A DNA stretch of 64,000 nucleotides, from contig JAWOJB010000025.1 of the NCBI GenBank assembly GCA_046484325.1, positions 4,333 to 68,332 of the forward strand, given 5' to 3'. The stretch is from Acidimicrobiia bacterium. GTDB taxonomy: Bacteria > Actinomycetota > Acidimicrobiia > Spongiisociales > ZC4RG35. The position numbers and the translations under genes are program-made. The notes beneath the pieces were generated by a model. The model was not told the DNA's origin and did no database searches. It worked only from the letters and a program-made list of their open reading frames with translations. Shown here piece after piece: positions 48,086 through 60,845 of the stretch (position 1 is the first letter of the stretch; every line of letters starts with the position of its first letter).

Positions 48086-48889
48086 TCATTGCGGCTGACA
48101 GGTCGGGCACCACCACGCCCGGCGAGCTCCGATCTCCTCCGATCGGATGGTGGTGCCGCACCGGCGGCACGGCAGGCCTTCTCGCCCGTAGACGTAGAGC
48201 CGCTCCGAGGTGGGGATGTCGCGAGCTCTCGCCACCCCCACCTCGCACGGGTCGACCGTGACGATCCTTCCGGAGCGCTCCCCGGCCCGCAGCAGGCGCA
48301 CGGCCTCGTTCCACACCCGTGACGCTTCGGCCTCCGAAAGCCGGCGAGCGGGCCGGTGAGGGTCGATCCCGATCAGGAACAGCAGCTCCGACCGATACAC
48401 GTTGCCGATCCCGGCCATCACCGCCTGATCGAGGAGGGCGGCACCCACCGGCACCGAACGGCGCGCCAGCGCCGTCGACACCCGCCCGGGCGCAACCGGA
48501 TCACCTCGAAGCGGATCGGGGCCGAGTCTGGCGACGATCCCTGCCACCTCGGCCTCGTCCAGGATCTCGCATGCCGTCGGGCCCGACAGATGGAGCGTGG
48601 CGGTGGGCGCGACCACGGCGAGACGGGTGCCTGCGGACGGATCCGGGGCATCGCCGAGGTGGGTGCGGAATCGACCGAACAGGCCGAGGTGCACGTGGAG
48701 CACGAGGCCGTGGTCCCAGTGATAGAAGAGATGCTTGCCGTGGGCGTCGATCCGCTCGATCAAGCGGCCGTCGAGCAGCGCTGCCCCATCGGCGAAGCGA
48801 CCCTGGGGTGACCACACCCGCAGGCAGGGGCCCACGAACCGCTGCGACTGCAGGCGAGCCGCACGGTGGATGGTGTGTCCTTCGGGCAT
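48086..48889 (-). CDS. nei: Fpg/Nei-family DNA glycosylase (endonuclease VIII-like)
   Basis: In-frame ATG at 48889 gives MPEGHT (catalytic Pro2/Glu3). H2TH region GIGNVYRSE. C-terminal zinc finger CRRCG...CPTCQ. Confidence 0.85.
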   Translation of the reverse strand: MPEGHTIHRAARLQSQRFVGPCLRVWSPQGRFADGAALLDGRLIERIDAHGKHLFYHWDHGLVLHVHLGLFGRFRTHLGDAPDPSAGTRLAVVAPTATLHLSGPTACEILDEAEVAGIVARLGPDPLRGDPVAPGRVSTALARRSVPVGAALLDQAVMAGIGNVYRSELLFLIGIDPHRPARRLSEAEASRVWNEAVRLLRAGERSGRIVTVDPCEVGVARARDIPTSERLYVYGREGLPCRRCGTTIRSEEIGARRAWWCPTCQPQ

Positions 48890-48941
48890 GACCGCGACAC
48901 CGTAGGTCCGCCCTGCGCCAACCGGGCTACCGTCGCTGGCC

Positions 48942-50276
48942 ATGCAGCGCCTCGACCTCCCGGATGGGTTCCTGATCGGCGCCGCCACGGCCGCGTACCA
49001 GATCGAGGGAGCGGTCACCGAGGACGGCAGGGGCGCCTCCATCTGGGACACCTTCTCCCACACCCCGGGCCGGGTGGTGGGGGGGCACACCGGCGACGTC
49101 GCCTGTGACCATTACCACCGGATGGACGAGGACGTAGCCCTCATGGCCGAGCTGGGCCTCGACGCCTATCGCTTCTCGATCGCCTGGCCGCGGGTGCTCC
49201 CCGCTGGCCGCGGGGCCGTCAACCCGGCGGGGCTCGGCTTCTACGACCGGCTCGTCGACCGGCTGCTCGAGCACGGGATCACGCCCTTCGCCACGCTCTA
49301 CCACTGGGACCTCCCCCAGGTCCTCGAGGACGAAGGGGGATGGCGACGGCGCTCCACATCGGAGGCCTTCGCCGCCTATGCCGAGGTGGTGACTTCGCAC
49401 CTCGGCGATCGTGTGGGCCACTGGGCGACCCTGAACGAGCCCTGGGTGTCGGCCCACCTCGGGTACATCACGGGCAGCCACGCACCCGGAGGGTCCGACC
49501 TCGCCGACGGCCTGGCCGCCGCCCACCACCTGCTGCTCGCCCACGGGTTGGCCGTCCCCCGGATCCGGCGGTCGGCCCCCGGGGCGGCGGTGGGGATCGT
49601 GCTCAACCTGGTCGAGGTGACGACGATGTCCGCCCACCCGGCGGATGTGGCCGCGGCCACGATCGCCGAGGGGACGGTGAATCGATGGTTCCTCGACCCG
49701 ATCGCAGGACGGGGGTATCCCGGTGATGCCGCCGCCGCCCTCGGATGGGATGGCGCACCGGTCCGCGACGGCGACCTCGGGACCATCGGCGTCCCGATGG
49801 ACTTCCTCGGCGTCAACTACTACACCCGGCTCATCAAGGGTTCTCCCGGCCTGGCCGACCGCCCCGAGCCGATCGCACGATCGAGCGGCGAGATCACCGA
49901 CATGGGCTGGGAGGTCCACCCGGACGGCCTGGAGCACGTGCTGCGCCGCGTCGACCGCGAGTACGGGTTCTCGCGGCTGTACGTCACCGAGAACGGCGTG
50001 GCATACCCCGAGCCCGAGCACGTCGAGGGTCCGATCGACGACGCCGAGCGGATCTCCTACCTCCAGCGCCATCTGGAGGCGGCGGCCAGGGCGGTCGCAG
50101 GCGGCGTTCCACTCGCCGGGTACTTCGTCTGGTCGCTCCTCGACAACTTCGAGTGGGCGTTCGGGTACACGAAACGCTTCGGGATCGTTCATGTCGACTT
50201 CGACACCCTCGCCAGGACGCCCAAGCGGTCGTACTCCTGGCTGCGAGAGCTACAGACCCCCCGGCACCGGACATGA
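48942..50276 (+). CDS. bglB: GH1 beta-glucosidase
   Basis: 444-aa ORF. AAYQIEGA, acid/base TLNEPW, nucleophile YVTENG. Confidence 0.9.
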   Translation: MQRLDLPDGFLIGAATAAYQIEGAVTEDGRGASIWDTFSHTPGRVVGGHTGDVACDHYHRMDEDVALMAELGLDAYRFSIAWPRVLPAGRGAVNPAGLGFYDRLVDRLLEHGITPFATLYHWDLPQVLEDEGGWRRRSTSEAFAAYAEVVTSHLGDRVGHWATLNEPWVSAHLGYITGSHAPGGSDLADGLAAAHHLLLAHGLAVPRIRRSAPGAAVGIVLNLVEVTTMSAHPADVAAATIAEGTVNRWFLDPIAGRGYPGDAAAALGWDGAPVRDGDLGTIGVPMDFLGVNYYTRLIKGSPGLADRPEPIARSSGEITDMGWEVHPDGLEHVLRRVDREYGFSRLYVTENGVAYPEPEHVEGPIDDAERISYLQRHLEAAARAVAGGVPLAGYFVWSLLDNFEWAFGYTKRFGIVHVDFDTLARTPKRSYSWLRELQTPRHRT

Positions 50277-51184
50277 GCACCGCCGTCGCCGTCGACGACC
50301 TCCACAAGTCGTACGGCCCGGTACGCGCGCTCGAGGGAGTCTCGTTCCGGATCGAGCCGGGCGAGGTCTACGCACTGCTCGGTCCCAACGGCGCCGGCAA
50401 GACCACCACGATCGAGATCCTCGAGGGCTACCGGAGAGCCGATCGGGGGACCGTGACGGTGCTCGGGGTGGATCCCGCCACCGCCGGAGAGGCGTTCAGG
50501 GACCGGATCGGCATCGTGCTGCAGTCCACCGGCATCGAGGACGTGCTCACGGTTCGAGAGGCCGTGGCCCACTACGCCCGCCCCTACTCGCGGCGCCGCT
50601 CCGCCGACGAGGCCATCGACCTCGCGGGGCTGGGCCCCCAGGCGGGGAGCCGGATCAGGACGCTGTCGGGTGGCCAGCGGCGGCGCCTCGACCTGGCCAT
50701 CGCCCTCGTCGGCGATCCCGAGCTGCTGTTCCTCGACGAGCCCACCACCGGGTTCGACCCCGCCGCCAGGCGGGAGGCCTGGTCGATGATCGACGGTCTC
50801 CGGCGCCGGGGCACGACCGTGCTCCTCACGACGCACTATCTCGACGAAGCCCAGCACCTGGCCGATCGGGTGGCCGTCGTTTCCGCCGGACGGATCGTGG
50901 CCGAGGGTGATCCGGGCACGCTGGGCGGTCGCGACCGGGCGAGGGCCGTCATCCGCTTCCGCCTCCCCGCAGGCGTGCAGCCGCCCCCGATGACCCCCGG
51001 CTCCCGGATCCGCACGTCTCCCGCGGCGGATCGGGTCGAGATCGACACCGATCGCCCCACCCAGGACCTCGCAGTACTGACGGCTTGGGCGGTGGACCGG
51101 GGCGAGGAGCTCGCCGGCCTGGAGGTGGTGCGTCCGAGTCTGGAGGACGTCTACCTCGGACTCGTCGGAGAGCGGCCATCGTGA
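50273..51184 (+). CDS. ABC transporter ATP-binding protein (ABC-2/DrrA-like)
   Basis: ATG at 50273 overlaps the bgl stop (ATGA). GPNGAGKTT, LSGGQRRRL and LLFLDEPT motifs. Confidence 0.85.
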   Translation: MSTAVAVDDLHKSYGPVRALEGVSFRIEPGEVYALLGPNGAGKTTTIEILEGYRRADRGTVTVLGVDPATAGEAFRDRIGIVLQSTGIEDVLTVREAVAHYARPYSRRRSADEAIDLAGLGPQAGSRIRTLSGGQRRRLDLAIALVGDPELLFLDEPTTGFDPAARREAWSMIDGLRRRGTTVLLTTHYLDEAQHLADRVAVVSAGRIVAEGDPGTLGGRDRARAVIRFRLPAGVQPPPMTPGSRIRTSPAADRVEIDTDRPTQDLAVLTAWAVDRGEELAGLEVVRPSLEDVYLGLVGERPS

Positions 51185-51972
51185 CACGGCCTGGGCTCGT
51201 CCTGCACCAGATCCGGCACCAGAACCGGGTCTTCTGGCGGGTTCCCCTCGCCGCGTTCTTCACCGTCGCCTTCCCGCTCATGCTCCTCGTGCTCTTCAAC
51301 CTGCTGAACCGCGGAGTCACGCTCCCTTCGATGGGCGGTCTCCCCTATGCCCAGTTCTTCACCCCGGCCATCGCCGTCTTCGCGATGGTGAGCGCCACCT
51401 ACACGAGCGTGGCGATCCAGACCGGGATCGACCGTGACGACGGGATTCTCAAGCGGGTTCGGGGCACGCCGCTACCGCCCGGCACCTATCTGGCAGGGCG
51501 CATCGGGTCGGCGCTCTGGATCGGCGTGCTGTCGGTCGCCGCCACGATGGCGACCGGGGTGCTGGCGTTCGACGTCGTCGTGCTGTGGGACCGTGTTCCC
51601 ATGGCACTCCTGGTGCTGACGGTTGGCGCCGCCTGCTTCTGCGCACTCGGTCTCGCCCTGGCGGCCGCCGCGTCCAATGCCCAGAGCGCCCAGGCCCTGG
51701 CGAACGCCACGATCCTGCCTCTTGCGTTCATCTCGGGCATCTTCTTCCCGCTCGACACGGCGCCGGCCTGGATGGGCGCCATCGCCGGGATATTCCCGCT
51801 CCAGGCCTTCGTCGAGGCGTTCGGCGCCCAGTGGAACCCTCTGGCCGAACCCGGGATCCCCTGGGCCGACCTGGGGATCATGGTCGCATGGTTCGCCGCC
51901 GCCGTCGTGGTAGCCCGCCGTACCTTCACCTGGGAGCCACGACCGGGTGGCAGTCGCCGGCGCCGACGTTGA
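51181..51972 (+). CDS. ABC-2 type transporter permease
   Basis: GTG at 51181 forms a GTGA overlap with the ATPase stop. Six hydrophobic helices. Confidence 0.75.
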   Translation: MTRPGLVLHQIRHQNRVFWRVPLAAFFTVAFPLMLLVLFNLLNRGVTLPSMGGLPYAQFFTPAIAVFAMVSATYTSVAIQTGIDRDDGILKRVRGTPLPPGTYLAGRIGSALWIGVLSVAATMATGVLAFDVVVLWDRVPMALLVLTVGAACFCALGLALAAAASNAQSAQALANATILPLAFISGIFFPLDTAPAWMGAIAGIFPLQAFVEAFGAQWNPLAEPGIPWADLGIMVAWFAAAVVVARRTFTWEPRPGGSRRRRR

Positions 51973-52476
51973 TCAGAGGTCCCGGTAACTCGCCGCGAAC
52001 CTCAGGTAGTCGTTGACGCCCTGATCCTGTCGCTCGATCTCGTCGGGCCTCAACTCCCGCACCGGCTTCGCCGGGGTCCCGATGGCCAGCGTCCACGATG
52101 GGATCTCACGGCCCTCGGGGAGCAGCGAGCCGGCCGCCAGCCAAGCACCCTCACCCAGCACCGAGCCGTTGAGCGCACGCGCGCCGATGCCCACCAGGCA
52201 ACGGTCGCCGATCCTGGCGCCGTGGACGACGGAAGCGTGGCCGACGGTCACCCGGCGACCGATCAGGCAGGGGATTCCGGCATCGCAGTGCACCACGGTT
52301 CCGTCCTGGAGGTTGGTCTCCTCACCGATCTCGATCCGGTCGAGCTCGGCGCGGATCACCACCCCGAACATGACCACGGCCCGGGCGGCGATGGAGACGT
52401 CTCCGTGGACGACGGCGGTCGGTGCCACGTACGCCTCGGGGTGGATCCTGGGTAGCGCCAGGTCGAGCGGCTCCAC
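51973..52476 (-). CDS. Gamma-carbonic-anhydrase-like / hexapeptide-repeat protein (PaaY/YrdA/CaiE family)
   Basis: 167-aa ORF. Left-handed beta-helix hexapeptide periodicity (VHGDVSI, VIRAELD, VVHCDAG, VVHGARIG). GTG start 20 nt after the upstream stop. Confidence 0.8.
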   Translation of the reverse strand: MEPLDLALPRIHPEAYVAPTAVVHGDVSIAARAVVMFGVVIRAELDRIEIGEETNLQDGTVVHCDAGIPCLIGRRVTVGHASVVHGARIGDRCLVGIGARALNGSVLGEGAWLAAGSLLPEGREIPSWTLAIGTPAKPVRELRPDEIERQDQGVNDYLRFAASYRDL

Positions 52477-52496
52477 CAGACAACCCTAGACCGGGC

Positions 52497-54290
52497 TCAC
52501 CAGCCCTCGTAGACGTCGCGACCCTCGAGCGAGACCTGACCGCAGATCCGGCACACCCGACGGGCGATACCGCCCGTAGCGCCTCGCAGCTCGAACTCGT
52601 GGACGTGGCCGGCCTTCCGACCGAACAGCCCGAGCCTCCCGACCTTCTTGGACTCGGCGGCATGCCGGCCCGCGCCTCCATTGGATTCGGCCGGCACCGC
52701 CGCCACCGACGGTGCCTCGACCTCCGGGGGTGCCTCCACCACCTCCACCGCGGCGGCGGGCCGGAACATCCCCGGCGAAGGAACCGGTTCGGGCTGGGGC
52801 TCCCACAACGGCATCGGCTCGGGCTCGGCTTGGGGCTCGGCTTGCGCAACCGCAGCCTCCGCCGCTTCCGCCTCCGCCTGGGCCTCCGCAGCCGCCAATG
52901 CTTCCGCCTCCGCCCGGGCCGCCGCCTCCGCCGCTTCCGCCTCCGCCGCCGCCTGGGCCTCCGCGGCCACCAATGCTTCCGCCGCCGCTTGGGCCTCCGC
53001 AGCCGCCAATGCTTCCGCCTCCGCCAATGCTTCCGCCGCCTCCGCCGCTTCCGCCGCCGCCTGGGCCTCCGCAGCCGCCAATGCTTCCGCCTCCGCCCGG
53101 GCCGCCGCCTCCGCCGCCGCCGCTTCCGCCTCCGCAGCCGCCAGGGCCTCCGCAGCCGCCAATGCTTCCGCCTCCGCCAATGCTTCCGCCGCCTCCGCCG
53201 CTTCCACCGCCGCCTGGGCCTCCGCAGCCGCCAATGCTTCGGCCTCCGCCCGGGCCGCCGCCTCCGCCGCCGCTTGGGCCTCCGCCTCCGCCTGAGCCGC
53301 CGCCTGGGCCTCCGCAGCCGCCAATGCTTCCGCCGCCGCTTGGGCCTCCGTAGCCGCCAATGCTTCCGCCTCCGCCTCCGCCGCTTCCGCCTCCGCCTGG
53401 GCCTCCGCAGCCGCCAATGCTTCCGCAGCCGCCTGAGCCTCCGCCTCCGCCGCCTGGGCCTCCGCCTCCGCCTGGGCCGCAGCCGCCAATGCTTCCGCCT
53501 CCGCCCGGGCCGCCGCAGCCGCCGCTTCCGCCTCCGCCGCCGCCTGAGCCTCCGCCGCTTCCGCCGCCGCCTGAACCTCCGCCGCCGCCGCCTCCGCCGC
53601 TTCCGCCGCCGCCTGAACCTCCGCCTCCGCCTGGGCCGCCGCAGCCTCCGCCTCGGCGACCGACTCGGGCACTACCGCTGCCACCTGCTCAGGATCGGCA
53701 TGGGAGGCGAGATCGTCGCCCCCGACGGAAAAGGCCGGGGTGACCTCCTCGAAGACAACCGATGCCGTGGCCGACCAGGTCTCTGGCTGAGGTGGGCTGG
53801 GTGGCACGGCCTCGCTGGGCGACCAGGTAGGCACCCTCTCGGCGGATGGAGGGCTCAACTCGAGGCCCCCGCCTGGTTCGCCGGCGGCGACCGGTGCAGG
53901 GAGCGAGGGCTGGATCGGAGCCACCGGCGGAGCCGGGGCTGGCTCCGCCAGGGCCGGCGTGGGAAGCGGCTCCGCCGTCCCCGGAGCCTTACCCTTCTTC
54001 GAGAAGAACTTCCGCTTCTTGGTCAAGCGCTGGACGACCTCGTCGATGTGGGTCATGCCGCTGTAGGCGAAGCTCAGGGCATCGTCGGCGATGAAGACGA
54101 TCTGCTCCTCGCCGAGCGTGAAGCGGAATTGGTTGGAGACGATGCGTTCGATCCCGATCTCGTCCAGGCGCCACATCCCGAGGTCGCCTTCGGGGCCGGA
54201 GACCCTCAGGAAGACGTCCTCGACGTGGACGACCGCGGCGACACCCTCACCGGTCTCACCGGGCAGTTTCAGACGACCTGTGAATCGCAC
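52497..54290 (-). CDS. Modular protein of unknown function: ~100-aa N-terminal globular domain, basic patch, Pro-rich linker, ~270-aa Ala/Glu/Gln repeat, C-terminal HxH...CxxC motif
   Basis: Track ORF 52497..54296. GTG at 54290 lies 6 nt after GAGAGG. Non-repetitive N-terminal (RFTGRLKLPGETGEGVAAVVHVEDVFLRVSG...) and C-terminal (GHVHEFELRGATGGIARRVCRICGQVSLEGRDVYEGW) ends are in the same frame as the AEAQ repeat. No family recognised. Confidence 0.6.
   Translation of the reverse strand: MRFTGRLKLPGETGEGVAAVVHVEDVFLRVSGPEGDLGMWRLDEIGIERIVSNQFRFTLGEEQIVFIADDALSFAYSGMTHIDEVVQRLTKKRKFFSKKGKAPGTAEPLPTPALAEPAPAPPVAPIQPSLPAPVAAGEPGGGLELSPPSAERVPTWSPSEAVPPSPPQPETWSATASVVFEEVTPAFSVGGDDLASHADPEQVAAVVPESVAEAEAAAAQAEAEVQAAAEAAEAAAAEVQAAAEAAEAQAAAEAEAAAAAARAEAEALAAAAQAEAEAQAAEAEAQAAAEALAAAEAQAEAEAAEAEAEALAATEAQAAAEALAAAEAQAAAQAEAEAQAAAEAAARAEAEALAAAEAQAAVEAAEAAEALAEAEALAAAEALAAAEAEAAAAEAAARAEAEALAAAEAQAAAEAAEAAEALAEAEALAAAEAQAAAEALVAAEAQAAAEAEAAEAAARAEAEALAAAEAQAEAEAAEAAVAQAEPQAEPEPMPLWEPQPEPVPSPGMFRPAAAVEVVEAPPEVEAPSVAAVPAESNGGAGRHAAESKKVGRLGLFGRKAGHVHEFELRGATGGIARRVCRICGQVSLEGRDVYEGW
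52846..53660 (-). repeat. About 0.8 kb of nested imperfect tandem repeats (9/18-nt sub-units inside roughly 150-260-nt units) that encode the Ala/Glu/Gln tract
   Basis: The string ccaatgcttc occurs about 12 times and gcctccgcccgggccgcc about 4 times at irregular spacing of roughly 150-260 nt. Four reading frames carry overlapping track ORFs across this stretch. Confidence 0.9.
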
Positions 54291-54395
54291 CGCCAACCTC
54301 TCACGTCATGGCTCCCAGGCCGCCGGACGGGAGGACCGTCCACCCATCTGTCGCTCGATGCCCCGCGATCAGGGTCGCAGCCCCCACCCACCCCG

Positions 54396-57257
54396 TCAAG
54401 AGGGGCCAGCCTCGCCGACGAACGATTCGACCGGCGGACACGAGCACATCAGGTGACGGTCCCCGGAGGCGCCGTCGATGCGGCTCACCGGCGGCCAGTA
54501 CTTGGCGGTACGCAGCCCAGGCAAGGGAAACGCCGCCTCCGAGCGGAGGTACGGATGGGCCCATGTGTCGTCGCTGACATCCTCGGCGGTGTGAGGGGCG
54601 TTCTTGAGAGGGTTGTCCTCGGGATCCCAGTCCCCCGCCTCGACCCGGCCGATCTCGCGGCGGATCGCGATCATGGCATCGCAGAACCGGTCGAGCTCGG
54701 CGAGCGGCTCCGACTCCGTGGGTTCGATCATGAGCGTACCGGCGACCGGGAAGCTCAGGGTCGGGGCGTGGAAGCCGTAGTCGGCGAGCCGCTTGGCGAC
54801 GTCCTCCGCCGTGATCCCCGTCTCCTTCGTCAATGGACGGATATCGACGATGCACTCGTGCGCCACACGACCGTTGCGGCCCGAGTAGAGCACGGGGAAA
54901 TGGGGATCGAGCCTCCGGGCGAGGTAGTTGGCGTTGAGGATCGCCACCTCGGTGGCCATGCGCAGGCCGTTGGCTCCCATCATCGCGACGTACATCCACG
55001 AAATCGGCAGGATCCCAGCCGAGCCCCAGGGCGCCATCGAGACGGGGCCGATCCCCGTCTCGGGCCCGGCCTCCGGCCGCAGTGGGTGATTGGGGAGGAA
55101 GGGGGCGAGATGGGCCTTCACTCCGATCGGACCCACGCCGGGCCCGCCGCCGCCGTGCGGGATCGTGAACGTCTTGTGGAGATTCAGGTGACTGACGTCC
55201 GCCCCGAACCGTCCCGGCTTGGCCAGGCCCACCAGGGCGTTGAGGTTGGCCCCGTCGACGTACACCTGACCGCCCCGATCGTGGACGATCCGGCAGATCT
55301 CCCCGATCCCCTCCTCGAAGACGCCGTGCGTCGAGGGGTAGGTCACCATCGCCGCCGCCAGGCGGTCGGCATGTTGGTCTGCCTTTTGCCGCAGGTCGGT
55401 GAGGTCGACATCACCCGACTCGTCGCATGCGACGACGACGACCTGCAAACCCGCCATGGCGGCCGACGCGGCGTTGGTGCCGTGGGCCGAGGACGGGATG
55501 AGGCAGATGTCCCGGTGGGCCTCGCCGCGGCTGCCGTGGTACGCGCGGATGGCCAGGAGACCGGACAACTCACCCTGGGACCCGGCGTTGGGCTGGAGCG
55601 AGACGGCGTCGTAACCCGTGATCTCGGCCAGCCAGGTCTCGAGGTCGCCGATGATCCGGAGATAGCCGCCGGCCTGATCGAGCGGGGCGAACGGATGAAT
55701 GTCGGAGAACTCGGGCCAGGTGATCGGCTCCATCTCGGATGTGGCGTTGAGCTTCATCGTGCACGATCCCAGGGGGATCATCGAACGATCGAGTGCCAGG
55801 TCCCGATCCGCCAGGCTCCTCAGGTAGCGAAGCATGTCATGCTCGCTCCGGTAACGGTGGAACACCGGATGGGTCAGGAACTCGCGGGTGCGCTGCAACC
55901 CACCGGGAATCCCGGACGGCCCGGTCTCGGGGATCGATCCGGCACCGAACGCGGCAAGGACCTCTCCGACGATCTCGTCGGTGGTGGTCTCGTCCAGCGT
56001 CACTCCCACCGTGTCATCGTCGACGAGACGCAGGTTGATCCCCCGCTCGAGGGCAGCAGCGACCACCTCGCCTGCGCCGCCCGGCACCGTGACCGTGATC
56101 GTGTCAAACCAGGTGTCGCCGACCACCGCGATGCCGCCTGCCCGCAGTCCGGCGACGAGCCGCGACGTCAGGTCGTACACGCGGGTGGCGATCCGAGTGA
56201 GCCCTTCCGGCCCGTGCCAGACGGCGTAGAGACCGGCGATGACCGCGAGCAGCACCTGGGCGGTGCACACGTTCGAGGTGGCCCGCTCCCGACGAATGTG
56301 CTGCTCCCGGGTCTGGATGGCCAGCCTCAGCGCAGTACGCCCCTGCGAGTCGTGGGAAACGCCGACCAGGCGTCCGGGGAGAGAGCGCACGTGCTGGGTG
56401 CGAGTGGCGAGATACCCGGCATGGGGCCCGCCGAAGCCGAGCGGGACCCCGAACCGCTGGGCGGAACCGACGACCACGTCCGCCCCCCAGGCACCGGGTG
56501 GCTCGAGCAGCACGAGGGCGAGCAGATCGGCGGCCACGACGACCATCGTCCCCGCCTCCCGACTGCGAGCGGCTGCCGCTCGGAGATCGCGGACCCGGCC
56601 CGACGAGCCGGGATACTGGACGAGCAATCCGAAGGCGTCGGCGGGGTCGACCGTCGCGGCATCCACCACGGCTACCTCGATGTCGACGGGCGCCGCCCTC
56701 GACTCGAGGATGGCGATCGTGTGCGGGTGGCAGTCGACATCGACGTAGAAGCGCCGGGTCTCCTTACGAGAGATCCGCCGGACCATGGCCATCGCCTCGG
56801 CGGCGGCGGTGCCCTCGTCGAGCAGCGACGCGTTGGCGAGATCGAGGCCGGCGAGATCGGCCACCATCGTCTGATAGTTGAGGAGCGCCTCGAGACGTCC
56901 CTGGGAGATCTCCGGTTGGTAGGGCGTGTAGGCGGTGTACCAGGCGGGGTCCTCGAGCACGTTTCGCTTCACCACGGGAGGGGTGATCGTGCCGTGGTAC
57001 CCGAGGCCGATGAGCGAGGTGAGCACCCGGTTCTTCGACGCGATCTGGGCGAGCACGGCGAGTGCATCCCGTTCGGTCATGGCCGGCGGCAGCTGGAGAC
57101 GGTCGTCGCGAATTCCCGGCGGGACCGTCGACGAAATGAGCTCGTCGAGCGAGCCGGCACCGACCTCGGCCAGCATCTTGCCGAGGTCGGCAGGGCGGGG
57201 GCCGAGGTGACGGTGGGCGAAGGCATCCAGGTCTTCGTGGGGACTGGGCTCGGTCAT
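54396..57257 (-). CDS. gcvP: Glycine dehydrogenase (decarboxylating), single-chain P-protein
   Basis: In-frame ATG at 57257 ([20 protein letters not shown]) in track ORF 54396..57686. [13 protein letters not shown] motif. PLP-lysine motif SHLNLHKTF. 953 aa. Confidence 0.95.
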
Positions 57258-57287
57258 CGGCGACTCCACGTTCCTCGGCGTCTCGTC

Positions 57288-57456
57288 CCCCGACGCTGTC
57301 CGGATGCCTGAGAGGTTCGCCCCGGCCGGGCTTGCTCCTTCGGCGGCGGCGCACCGCCTCTCCAGCGTGGCCTCGCCCGAGCGGTCCGTGTGCCTGAGAG
57401 ATTCCGGGGAGTTGCCCCTTCGGCGCCTCTCGCTGGGAGAGGGCTCTCCCGTTCGG
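57288..57456 (-). promoter_or_regulatory. Tandem glycine riboswitch (two aptamers) in the gcvP leader
   Basis: The minus-strand sequence reads GGGAGAGCCC...GGCGCCGAAGGGGCAACTCCCCGGAATCTCTCAGGCACACGGACCG. It continues CTGGAGAGGCGG...CCGCCGAAGGAGCAAGCC...AACCTCTCAGGCATCCGGACAGCG. These are the conserved GGAGAG / CCGAAGGRGCAA / CTCTCAGGC-N-GGAC cores, present twice. The element ends about 30 nt before the ATG. Confidence 0.85.
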
Positions 57457-57538
57457 GTTCGCCGGCCGACCGCGATGGTACCGGGCCTCCGGCCGAACCG
57501 GTACCGGCCGACCGGCCCCCCATCGCTACCCTTCGGCC

Positions 57539-58627: not shown

Positions 58628-59707
58628 TCACACCGAGAAGCGGACAACGATGACGTCGCCGTCCCTGACCTCGTAGTCCCGGCCCTCGACCCGGATCCGG
58701 TTGGCCTTCTTGGCCGCGTCCCAGCCGCCGGCGGCCAGCACCTCGTCCATGGGCGCCACCTCGGCCCGGATGAAGCCGCGCTCGAGGTCGCTGTGGACCT
58801 TGCCCGCCGCCTCGGGGGCGAGGGCACCCCGGCGCACGGTCCAGGCGTGGGCCTCCTTCGGCCCGATCGTGTAGAAGGACACGAGGCCGAGCGCGCCATG
58901 GGCCGCCCGTACGATCGTGGCGAGCGCCCCTTCTCCCAGTCCCAGCTCTGCGAACAGCTCTGCCCGGTCGGATGGATCGAGGCGGGCTCCCTCCTCCTCG
59001 ATCCGGGCCGATATGGCGACCACCGTGTCCCCGGCGGGAGTCACCGCCCGCACCGCCTCGGCCATCTCCCCCGGATCCGCCTCGTCCTCACCGACGTTCA
59101 CCACCCAGATCGAGGGTTTCAGGGTGAGGGGCGCCAGATCGCGAAAGGCGGCCCTCGCCTCCTCCGACCAGTCCCTGGCGCGGAGATGGGTGCCGCCGGC
59201 GAGGAGCTCGCTTGCCTCGGCGATCGCCGCAGCGGAGGGCCGCCTGGCAGGATCGACCGTCGCCTCCTTGGCGACCTTGTCCCGGCGGCGCTCGAACACG
59301 TCGGCATCGGCGATCGCGAGCTCGAGCGCGAGCTCCTCGGCCTGAGCCACCGGGTCGGTGCCCGATTCCTCGTCCGGCACGGCCGCATCCTCGAAGGCCC
59401 GCAGCACGACCACCAGCGCGTCCATCTCCCTCAGGCGACCGAGGAACTGCCCGGCGAGGCCGCCCCCATGGCCCGGCTTGGCGAGGGCCGGCAGGTCGAG
59501 CAGGTCGAGGGTCGCAGGCACGATCTTGGCGGACCGCTCGACGGCGGCCGCGGCGTCGAGGGCGGCGTCGGGCACCCTGGCCACCCCGAGGTTCGGCTCC
59601 CGGGTCGAGTAGGGATGGGGTGCCGTGACGGCGTCGAGACCCGTCAGCGCGTTGAACAGTGCGGTCTTGCCCGTATTGGGGAACCCGAGGATGCCGAGCC
59701 GTGCCAT
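58628..59707 (-). CDS. ychF: Ribosome-binding ATPase YchF
   Basis: 359-aa ORF. GFPNTGKTALFNALT P-loop. C-terminal TGS-like region HSDLERGFIRAEV. Confidence 0.9.
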   Translation of the reverse strand: MARLGILGFPNTGKTALFNALTGLDAVTAPHPYSTREPNLGVARVPDAALDAAAAVERSAKIVPATLDLLDLPALAKPGHGGGLAGQFLGRLREMDALVVVLRAFEDAAVPDEESGTDPVAQAEELALELAIADADVFERRRDKVAKEATVDPARRPSAAAIAEASELLAGGTHLRARDWSEEARAAFRDLAPLTLKPSIWVVNVGEDEADPGEMAEAVRAVTPAGDTVVAISARIEEEGARLDPSDRAELFAELGLGEGALATIVRAAHGALGLVSFYTIGPKEAHAWTVRRGALAPEAAGKVHSDLERGFIRAEVAPMDEVLAAGGWDAAKKANRIRVEGRDYEVRDGDVIVVRFSV

Positions 59708-59846
59708 CGGCGGAGGCTACCCGTCGCTCAGCGGACGCCACCCGGCCGGATCCCCCACGAAGCCGAGCCCGGGGAAGGGCGGTGGATCGGTCGTCGAATC
59801 CGGCACCAAGGGCGGCGGACCGCTTCTACCCGGTACGCTCCGCACC

Positions 59847-60845
59847 GTGCAGGTGACCGTCGTCGGCTCGGGCTCGTGGGGCACCACGGTCGCGGCCATC
59901 GCGGCCCGAACCCACCCCACCGTGCTCTGGGCGCGGCGTCCCGAGCTCGCCGATGCCATCAACACCACCGGCGAGAACCCCGACTACCTGCCCGGCCACC
60001 GCCTGCCCTATGGGCTCCGGGCGACGACCGACCTAGGCCGTTCGCTGGCGGGGACCGATCTCGTCGTGATGGGCGTCCCCTCTCACGGATTCCGCCAGGT
60101 CCTCGCCGAAGCAGCGGGTCTCATCCGCGACGACGTCCCGATCGTCAGCCTCACCAAGGGCATCGAGCAGGACACGCTGCTGCGGATGACCCAGGTCGTC
60201 GTCGAGGTGCTGCCCTCCCACGACCCCGACCGCGTCGGCGTGCTCACCGGGCCGAATCTCGCCCGGGAGGTCGCCCTCGGGATGCCGGCGGCGGCGGTGG
60301 TGGCCATGCACGACGAGGAGGCCGCCGGGCGGATCCAGCACGTCTTCATGGACCCCACCTTCCGGGTGTACACGAACGACGACGTCGTCGGTTGCGAGAC
60401 CGCCGGAGCGCTCAAGAACGTGATGGCGATCGCCGCGGGCATGTCGAAGGGTCTCGGCTTCGGGCACAACACCCTGGCCGCCCTGATCACCCGGGCCCTT
60501 GCCGAACTGACCCGGCTCGGCGTGGCCATGGGCGGGCAGCCCGTGACCTTCGCCGGGCTCGCCGGCATGGGGGACCTCATCGCCACCTGCGCCTCGGACG
60601 AGAGCCGTAACAACCGGGTGGGCATGGAATTGGCCCGGGGTGGCACCCTCGAGGAGATCACCTCGGAGATGCGGATGGTCGCCGAGGGCGTCAAGAGCAC
60701 CCGGGCGGTGCTCGACCTCGCCCGCAGCCACGACGTGGACATGCCGATCGCCACCCAGGTGGGCCGGGTGCTCTACGAGGGCGCCCATCCCCGGGAGGCC
60801 GTGCTCGCCCTCATGACCCGCCAGGCGAAGGATGAGCGGGCGTGA
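59847..60845 (+). CDS. gpsA: NAD(P)H-dependent glycerol-3-phosphate dehydrogenase
   Basis: GTG at 59847 in track ORF 59625..60845. VVGSGSWGTT, LTKGIE and GALKNVMAIAAG motifs. Confidence 0.9.
   Translation: MQVTVVGSGSWGTTVAAIAARTHPTVLWARRPELADAINTTGENPDYLPGHRLPYGLRATTDLGRSLAGTDLVVMGVPSHGFRQVLAEAAGLIRDDVPIVSLTKGIEQDTLLRMTQVVVEVLPSHDPDRVGVLTGPNLAREVALGMPAAAVVAMHDEEAAGRIQHVFMDPTFRVYTNDDVVGCETAGALKNVMAIAAGMSKGLGFGHNTLAALITRALAELTRLGVAMGGQPVTFAGLAGMGDLIATCASDESRNNRVGMELARGGTLEEITSEMRMVAEGVKSTRAVLDLARSHDVDMPIATQVGRVLYEGAHPREAVLALMTRQAKDERA

Follow-up and report, generated by a model that had tools for sequence, protein, structure and literature searches.

A putative two-ended tether protein encoded next to gcvP in Acidimicrobiia, its PH-like head joined to a zinc-knuckle-like end through a hypervariable spacer

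What kind of protein sets some 270 residues, built mostly of Ala and Glu, between two compact ends, and what is its gene doing directly behind that of the glycine cleavage P-protein? The question is raised by gene X, a minus-strand gene in a stretch of 64,000 nucleotides from an Acidimicrobiia bacterium (assembly GCA_046484325.1, contig JAWOJB010000025.1, positions 4,333 to 68,332 of the forward strand), hereafter called the window, in which a tandem glycine riboswitch, gcvP, X and a gamma carbonic anhydrase (gamma-CA)-like gene follow one another on the minus strand. An earlier note on this DNA had described X as five parts joined in a single frame, with a long acidic tract that might serve as a scaffold, a ruler or tether, or a polyanion that binds cations or mimics nucleic acid. 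On balance, X would be a cytoplasmic two-ended tether or adaptor, a member of a family known so far only from Acidimicrobiia, whose spacer varies by lineage and whose gene is probably co-transcribed with gcvP. Carrying this reading is the finding that both ends of the protein are conserved, whereas the middle varies in length, charge and fold, which leads us to read the middle as a spacer and not as a sequence- or polyanion-specific element.

The extent of the family was established with an exhaustive phmmer (HMMER) search, in which the N-terminal domain (N-domain) of X was run against 1.84 billion cluster representatives. It returned 226 representatives at E<=1e-3, of which 53 reached E<=1e-10; the best scored 1e-23 at 54% identity, and the matching region is always located at residues 1-100 of proteins that are mostly 200-860 residues long. 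A common architecture recurs among the matches, comprised of the N-domain, a polybasic patch, a low-complexity linker, a basic motif and a C-terminal motif with two His and two Cys ligands (HHCC), HxHx[YF]x(6)GG[IL]xRxVCxxCGHVS; the HxH...CxxC ending is found in 102 of the 150 best N-domain matches. Every named genome match is a metagenome-assembled genome of the Acidimicrobiia. N-domain identity between X and its nearest relatives is only about 50%, and a metagenome scan with the N-domain of the window uncovered no close relative. No significant family was found for the X protein in Pfam, NCBIfam, PHROGs or PADLOC, in keeping with the earlier note, which had recognized neither end as a named family, and nothing suggests a phage or defence role since PHROGs and PADLOC gave no match. 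Literature searches turned up neither the combined architecture nor its gcvP linkage, nor any gcvP/CA link in Acidimicrobiia. On these searches the family is unnamed, without a Pfam or NCBIfam model for any member, and has so far turned up in Acidimicrobiia only. Word-index searches gave no match when the query was the N-domain by itself and, when the query was an alignment, only fragments of <180 residues, perhaps because gene callers and assemblies may often split the family within the low-complexity linker. A 169-residue call holding only the N-domain (P0162) and a 45-residue call holding only the C-terminal knuckle (P0185) apparently come from the same 632,438-nt contig.

AlphaFold and Foldseek, which the earlier note had proposed for the N-terminus, reveal a PH-like fold there that had escaped that note. 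Modelled from a 43-sequence alignment at a predicted local distance difference test (pLDDT) score of 91.7, the N-domain forms seven strands (residues 2-8, 17-24, 27-32, 35-41, 45-51, 54-59 and 62-68) followed by a C-terminal helix (71-96/97), the seven-stranded antiparallel β-sandwich closed by an α-helix that defines the PH-like superfold, and it stays above pLDDT 90 in a full-length model built from 44 sequences. The top 50 Foldseek matches in the PDB are all PH, PTB, EVH1 or FERM-F3 domains at template modelling (TM) scores of 0.6-0.77, among them the Ral-binding domain of Exo84, ASAP1, SHARPIN and Dbs, and all are annotated as eukaryotic proteins. While the sandwich and its helical cap are shared with these domains and with the bacterial bPH domains, the N-domain of X differs from the superfold in its sequence identity of 9-17%, in lacking any Pfam PH-clan match and in its acidic β1-β2 loop. 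No Pfam family matches the X protein at E<=1, none of the 43 N-domains matches a PH-clan family at E<=5, NCBIfam holds nothing relevant, and a PDB sequence search with the N-domain gave only noise (AvpA and an acyl carrier protein, E>0.05). DUF7092 (PF23368), on which a literature search returned nothing, matches five of the 43 N-domains, at best with E=0.018 and below the gathering score, and leaves X itself unmatched.

The β1-β2 loop bears on what this head might bind. It reads LPGETGEG in X (family consensus PxDxGxG), and the basic Lys/Arg motif of phosphoinositide-binding PH domains is absent from it; the PGETGEG portion is acidic and free of any basic residue. For this reason the head is unlikely to be a canonical phosphoinositide binder, and its ligand is more likely a protein or peptide. 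The polybasic and aromatic patch at the end of the PH helix, KKRKFFSKKGK, is kept as RLxKKRRxFxRKK in the closest, gcvP-linked homologues. Its KKRKFF portion could be where anionic lipid or nucleic acid makes contact.

At the opposite end of the protein, a Pro/Glu segment leads into a second basic motif, KKVGRLGLFGRK, and then into HVHEF...CRIC...YEGW, where the earlier note had suspected a small zinc-binding knuckle. That suggestion is credible. His562, His564, Cys580 and Cys583 are invariant in 44 aligned full-length sequences and in 28 diverse C-termini, as are Gly573 and Arg577, and the full-length AlphaFold model places three strands here (566-572, 575-580 and 586-590) at pLDDT 82-85, the HxH lying before the first strand and the CxxC joining the second and third in a zinc-ribbon-like layout. 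Four conserved candidate metal ligands are present in two pairs, with the set being HHCC and not C4. With zinc-ribbon and knuckle mini-domains such as Zn_ribbon_Nudix (PF14803) and those of the ribosomal eL43 type, the C-terminus shares its length of about 36 residues, its CxxCGH knuckle and its two pairs of ligands on either side of a three-stranded sheet, which in X is a modelled one; it differs from them in that the first knuckle is HxH instead of CxxC and in that all Pfam and PDB matches are sub-threshold. Zn_ribbon_Nudix is matched in this manner by 10 of the 28 members (best E=0.0099), while a PDB sequence search with the C-terminal domain yielded only noise (eL43 at E=0.66 and a His-tag artefact). 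By predicted fold both ends of X fall within known superfolds, PH-like and zinc-ribbon-like, and by sequence they belong to no curated family.

Between these conserved ends almost everything is free to change. Homologue linkers range from 83 to 713 residues and are mostly Pro/Glu/Ala-rich with a net charge of -14 to -102; those of the gcvP-linked clade are usually of the same composition, at -27 to -64, and one member that is still gcvP-linked (P0047) has a linker of net charge +15. In three homologues (P0124, P0147 and P0058) the linker carries charged helical segments resembling ER/K helices; an E/R/A/L-rich charged helical segment in place of Pro/Glu-rich disorder was observed in these three and in P0073, where the spacer seems to have turned helical independently. 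The share of Ala, Glu and Gln in a 100-residue window reaches at most 0.69 in homologues and exceeds 0.9 over about 270 residues in X, and a tract like that of X occurs in no homologue found, the nearest being the relatives already mentioned. The tract reads as a lineage-specific repeat expansion of a hypervariable linker, and not as a conserved polyanion. Similar low-complexity linkers rich in Pro, Ala and Glu, whose length differs from species to species between conserved terminal modules, are found as the disordered acidic Pro/Glu-rich linkers of bacterial scaffolds (PopZ, the FtsZ C-terminal linker, ZipA and TonB/TolA) and as the swinging-arm linkers of E2 proteins. The family of X differs from all of these in its end domains and shares no sequence homology with them. 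The general interpretation of the earlier note is divided by these results, in that the modularity, the putative knuckle, the predicted helix and the tether or ruler are supported, the last fitting a linker of freely varying length and composition between two conserved domains, and a function dependent on the polyanion is not, given that no homologue has such a tract and one gcvP-linked linker is net basic.

The tract itself is of the size and kind first described, with 272 residues comprised of 168 Ala (62%), 63 Glu (23%), 17 Gln (6%), 13 Leu (5%), 5 Val, 4 Arg, 1 Ser and 1 Thr; it bears a net charge of -59 and contains not a single Gly, Pro or Lys. AlphaFold predicts it as helical, with helices at 211-355 and 367-482 at pLDDT of about 90, whereas residues 101-208 and 483-559 fall below 50 and are likely disordered. 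The break in the model at 354-367 coincides with no helix breaker, and one continuous helix is equally compatible with the sequence. The Glu residues were said to recur every 3 or 6 residues rather than in heptads; the absence of a heptad is borne out, and the spacing holds approximately, the autocorrelation of Glu peaking at lag 6 (0.33) and being negative at lag 7, and the commonest Glu-Glu gaps being 6 (23 times), 2 (18 times) and 3 (9 times). Spacings of Leu and Val are likewise mostly multiples of 6, with a negative lag-7 autocorrelation, and for these reasons the tract lacks a heptad seam. The charges are spread evenly around the predicted helix (resultant vector of Glu, 0.05).

Neither of the familiar classes of long helix accommodates this pattern. 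The hydrophobic residues do not show the heptad periodicity of a coiled coil, and the alternating runs of Glu and Lys/Arg that form i to i+4 salt bridges in ER/K single α-helices are absent from a tract with 0 Lys and 4 Arg, so that both identities were rejected on periodicity and charge pattern. The tract nevertheless resembles ER/K spacers and EAAAK-type rigid linkers in being a long predicted helix without a heptad seam between two functional ends, and the ER/K-like linkers of the three homologues occupy the same position in their proteins. Any stability of the helix would derive from its 62% Ala content. A DksA-like arrangement of coiled-coil hairpin and zinc finger was also rejected, the helical tract being absent from homologues, and a PDB sequence search with the tract returned only the low-complexity repeats of TCERG1 and Med15, which are noise.

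The DNA of the tract is a degenerate array with a base period of 18 nt (6 residues), copies of which are 60-75% identical, and every repeat period is a multiple of 3. Within it lies one recent in-frame direct duplication of 153 nt (51 codons; 98% identity over 120 nt, with an exact core of 62 nt) at tract offsets of approximately 393-666 within 52851-53666, in the 53000-53350 region of the window, minus strand; this duplicate is the only part of the tract where a short-read assembly could miscount copies. The earlier note had held that codons in the tract are less biased toward GC at third positions (GC3) than in neighbouring genes, GAA, TTG, GCA and GCT being frequent. In part this is so: GC3 is 0.80 against 0.82-0.90 in the neighbours, TTG accounts for 12 of the 13 Leu codons, and GAA accounts for 21 of the 63 Glu codons against 0-9% in gcvP, the gamma-CA-like gene and the beta-glucosidase gene (and one of four in the Glu-poor ABC-2 permease gene). 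The Ala codons speak against it, with GCG dominating (119 of 168), and the tract is the most GC-rich DNA of the region (0.78-0.80). The odd codons fit amplification of the codons of one founder repeat unit; horizontal transfer was rejected as their source because the skew tracks the repeat unit and no DNA in the region is richer in GC.

The place of X behind gcvP is a conserved feature. The synteny check that the earlier note had called for, which drew on a locus search with a tight 8-sequence alignment, shows the linkage to be maintained across the main clade of the family, a conservation that had escaped that note: X comes directly after gcvP on the same strand in 16 distinct loci (the window together with L001-L007, L022, L023-L025, L026-L027, L031, L032 and L034-L036), at N-domain identities down to about 31-36% and with gcvP-X spacers of 37-168 nt. 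A glycine riboswitch precedes gcvP in the window and in six of the seven loci tested (a single aptamer was called in those six). The gamma-CA-like gene follows X in seven loci (the window, L005, L007, L023, L026, L031 and L036), at distances from about 21 nt to a 10-nt overlap and with 0 nt in places, and is absent downstream of X in L001-L004, L022, L034 and L035; elsewhere an fpg/nei gene or manC comes after X, the fpg/nei glycosylase gene standing directly after it in L001-L004. The whole gpsA-ychF-gcvP-X-gammaCA-manC block is syntenic across these Acidimicrobiia.

In the window, X has the layout of a gcv operon, with a leader riboswitch of two RF00504 copies, a common strand and short gaps of 99-105 nt to gcvP and 20 nt to the gamma-CA-like gene. 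The gcvP-X spacer holds no predicted promoter or terminator consensus, and a structured terminator was rejected there, the spacer folding no better than shuffled sequence (z=+0.88). X is probably co-transcribed with gcvP from the glycine-riboswitch leader, along with the gamma-CA-like gene. The locus resembles other glycine-riboswitch gcv operons in its tandem aptamer before gcvP and its co-oriented genes downstream, X among them. Known gcv operons carry gcvT, gcvH and gcvP, and differ from this one in that a PH/zinc-knuckle gene is included here; to our knowledge such a gene is undescribed as a member, and a literature search yielded no match. Strong GC hairpins without T-runs were noticed in the gcvP-X spacers of L001-L004 and L023, for example GGGCCGGGGGGCC, and GGGCCGGCGG...CCGCCGGCCC, which could be attenuators or RNA-stability elements.

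Not every protein with this head belongs to such a locus. A second group, class B, has the same PH-like N-domain, lacks the HHCC knuckle and ends in an amphipathic helix, LDPxQAxAMAxLVxAMC, with a weak DUF5763-like Cys motif in the middle of the protein. Class B loci (L009-L021, L028 and L037-L043; e.g. L009:7980-8924) are not gcvP-linked. Divergent genes of the architecture of X (class A-like) come straight after a class B gene, with a 4-nt overlap, in L033:4111-5930 and L030:3-1507, and such tandem paralogues may work together.

Considered as a whole, X would be a two-ended tether operating as follows. The PH-like head would bind a protein or peptide with assistance from the polybasic and aromatic patch, and the putative zinc knuckle, together with the basic motif before it, would engage another partner or a nucleic acid. 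In this genome an amplified 6-residue Ala/Glu unit has taken the place of part of the linker to give 272 residues without a helix breaker, and these would form one long, uniformly charged, non-amphipathic α-helix of approximately 40 nm if continuous (at 0.15 nm per residue), or about 20 nm if folded back as in the AlphaFold model. The tract would serve as a stiff spacer fixing the distance between the binding partners of the two end domains, with length and stiffness varying by lineage. Glycine-controlled co-transcription with gcvP is likely under this reading, and a role with glycine decarboxylase possible, though unlikely. Several points weigh against this account. AlphaFold is known to over-predict confident helices in Ala-rich low-complexity sequence, and at low ionic strength part of a chain with a net charge of -59 may be unfolded. 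Zinc binding by the knuckle is a prediction from its conserved residues, and the homologues are all annotated as 'hypothetical protein', with neither a functional annotation nor a precomputed Pfam domain. As for the operon, the strong GC hairpins in some spacers may cause partial termination after gcvP, the divergent class A-like paralogues L008, L030 and L033 have no gcvP linkage, and the adjacency to gcvP may reflect inherited gene order instead of shared function because the surrounding block is syntenic as a whole.

The alternative that fares best, while still improbable, is that X is a dedicated GcvP accessory, a scaffold or regulator induced by glycine, with GcvP and perhaps the gamma-CA-like protein as its binding partners and a spacer that clusters or positions the enzymes; the gamma-CA-like protein could hydrate the CO2 released. 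The same-strand order in 16 loci over such a wide range of N-domain identity speaks for it, as do the glycine riboswitch upstream, the abutting or overlapping gamma-CA-like gene, the window spacer free of terminator signals and the resemblance of Pro/Ala/Glu-rich linkers to the swinging arms of 2-oxoacid dehydrogenase E2 proteins. The linkage is not specific to X, however, as the neighbours are syntenic as a block; the gamma-CA gene is missing downstream in seven of the loci listed above; paralogues with the same two end domains stand in unrelated contexts; and no counterpart was seen outside Acidimicrobiia, though the glycine cleavage system is universal. Its most specific form, more doubtful still, makes X a glycine-induced organiser of glycine decarboxylation. 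GcvP and a partner, such as GcvH/T or the gamma-CA-like protein, would dock on the head and the knuckle, and the lineage-tunable spacer, here an Ala/Glu rod of approximately 20-40 nm, would fix the distance between them.

Falling between these two in probability, and likewise unlikely, is an organiser associated with the membrane or nucleoid after the manner of PopZ, the FtsZ linker or ZipA, possibly condensate-forming, for which the gcvP linkage would be incidental. The polybasic and aromatic patches would then be contact sites for anionic lipid or nucleic acid, and the acidic linker an entropic bristle. Conserved basic and aromatic motifs (KKRKFFSKKGK and xLFGRxRxKK) do flank a mostly acidic low-complexity linker, X has no catalytic signature, the PH superfold often serves membrane or peptide recognition, and the tandem class B/class A gene pairs suggest that proteins of the family may cooperate. 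Set against these are the acidic β1-β2 loop, which is not of the basic phosphoinositide-binding type, the lack of a transmembrane or amphipathic membrane-targeting helix, the linker charge, which is not conserved, and a position behind a metabolite riboswitch that would be odd for a housekeeping scaffold.

There is only a slight chance that the function resides in the Ala/Glu tract as such, as a polyanion buffering cations or mimicking nucleic acid. The net charge of -59, spread evenly around the predicted helix, would suit such a role, but the tract occurs in no homologue found, the linker of one gcvP-linked member is basic, and the repeats evolve by duplication as is typical of neutral or length-selected spacers. 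Least probable of all is that the tract or the reading frame is an artefact of assembly or annotation in repetitive high-GC DNA, since the spurious frames that such DNA yields, a 153-nt repeat that short reads could miscount and a gene seemingly split by gene callers in other assemblies are outweighed by conserved domains that flank the tract and share its frame, by repeat copies mostly divergent enough to be assembled and by repeat periods that preserve the frame.

The length of the open reading frame (ORF) of X is uninformative by itself because DNA of about 70% GC gives rise to spurious ORFs, such as one of 1629 residues on the plus strand at 52422-57311, antisense to X and gcvP. This ORF, and several Pro- or Ala/Ser-rich ones antisense to the Ala/Glu tract (e.g. 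52712-53353), are artefacts of high GC and repeats and not genes. X is taken to be a real gene because both its ends match independent homologues in the same frame (E=1e-23 for the N-domain; tblastn E down to 1e-13 for the C-terminal domain). Its translation displays each of the five parts originally described, and the start previously placed at 54290 also holds: read from the first TTG, at 54296, the ORF spans 52497-54296, and the GTG at 54290 is the likelier start because GAGAGG lies 6 nt upstream of it and the M-x-F-x-G of the homologues aligns there. The whole protein has a net charge of -75 and is read as cytoplasmic because its sequence shows neither a signal peptide nor a hydrophobic segment.

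These findings define an undescribed architecture of PH-like head, hypervariable spacer and HHCC knuckle in a poorly studied actinobacterial class, and both end domains merit family models. The family also presents a natural experiment in linker evolution, in which the connection between the same two ends is a disordered Pro/Glu chain in some lineages and a helix, ER/K-like or Ala/Glu, in others, and the tract of X, at its length and charge and with neither helix breakers nor salt bridges, would be an unusual test case for helix stability. The position of the gene between a riboswitch-controlled gcvP and a gamma-CA-like gene leads to the hypothesis that some bacteria employ an accessory protein of glycine cleavage; should X prove to be an organiser of glycine decarboxylation, it would be a previously unknown scaffold of the glycine cleavage system in Acidimicrobiia. 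If none of these readings holds, X is another lineage-specific hypothetical protein with a low-complexity expansion.

Table 1. Gene X, the segments of its protein and the neighbouring elements, in window coordinates.
Feature	Residues of X	Position	Strand	Basis
Gene X, 597-aa protein	1-597	52497..54290	-	GTG start; both ends match homologues in same frame
N-terminal PH-like domain	1-97	54000..54290	-	AlphaFold pLDDT 91.7; Foldseek; 226 representatives at E<=1e-3
Polybasic/aromatic patch KKRKFFSKKGK	91-101	53988..54020	-	End of PH helix
Pro-rich linker	102-208	53667..53987	-	24% Pro; predicted disordered, pLDDT <50
Ala/Glu(/Gln/Leu) tract	209-480	52851..53666	-	Composition, repeats, predicted long α-helix
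Pro/Glu-rich linker	481-547	52650..52850	-	Predicted disordered
Second basic motif KKVGRLGLFGRK		52614..52649	-	Family consensus xLFGRxRxKK or GLMGAVRxAFxR
C-terminal HHCC knuckle (putative)		52500..52607	-	Invariant columns; AlphaFold strands; weak Zn_ribbon_Nudix
gcvP, glycine cleavage P-protein		54396..57257	-	Pfam GDC-P E=3.9e-181; directly upstream of X
Tandem glycine riboswitch aptamers, gcvP leader		57293..57461	-	Rfam RF00504, 68.8 + 54.2 bits
gamma-CA-like hexapeptide-repeat gene		51973..52476	-	Pfam Hexapep; 20 nt downstream of X

The neighbourhood of X in the window offers a few further observations. The two adjacent RF00504 aptamers stop approximately 36 nt ahead of the gcvP start codon. 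The gamma-CA-like gene matches the NCBIfam gamma-CA model at E=3e-42, yet falls under the curated cutoff of that model. The gpsA/ychF/gcvP/X/gamma-CA block is conserved in other Acidimicrobiia; here (noticed at 48086-51972 and 58628-60845) an ABC-2 transporter pair together with an opposite-strand beta-glucosidase gene of glycoside hydrolase family 1 (GH1) separates the gamma-CA-like gene from the fpg/nei glycosylase gene.

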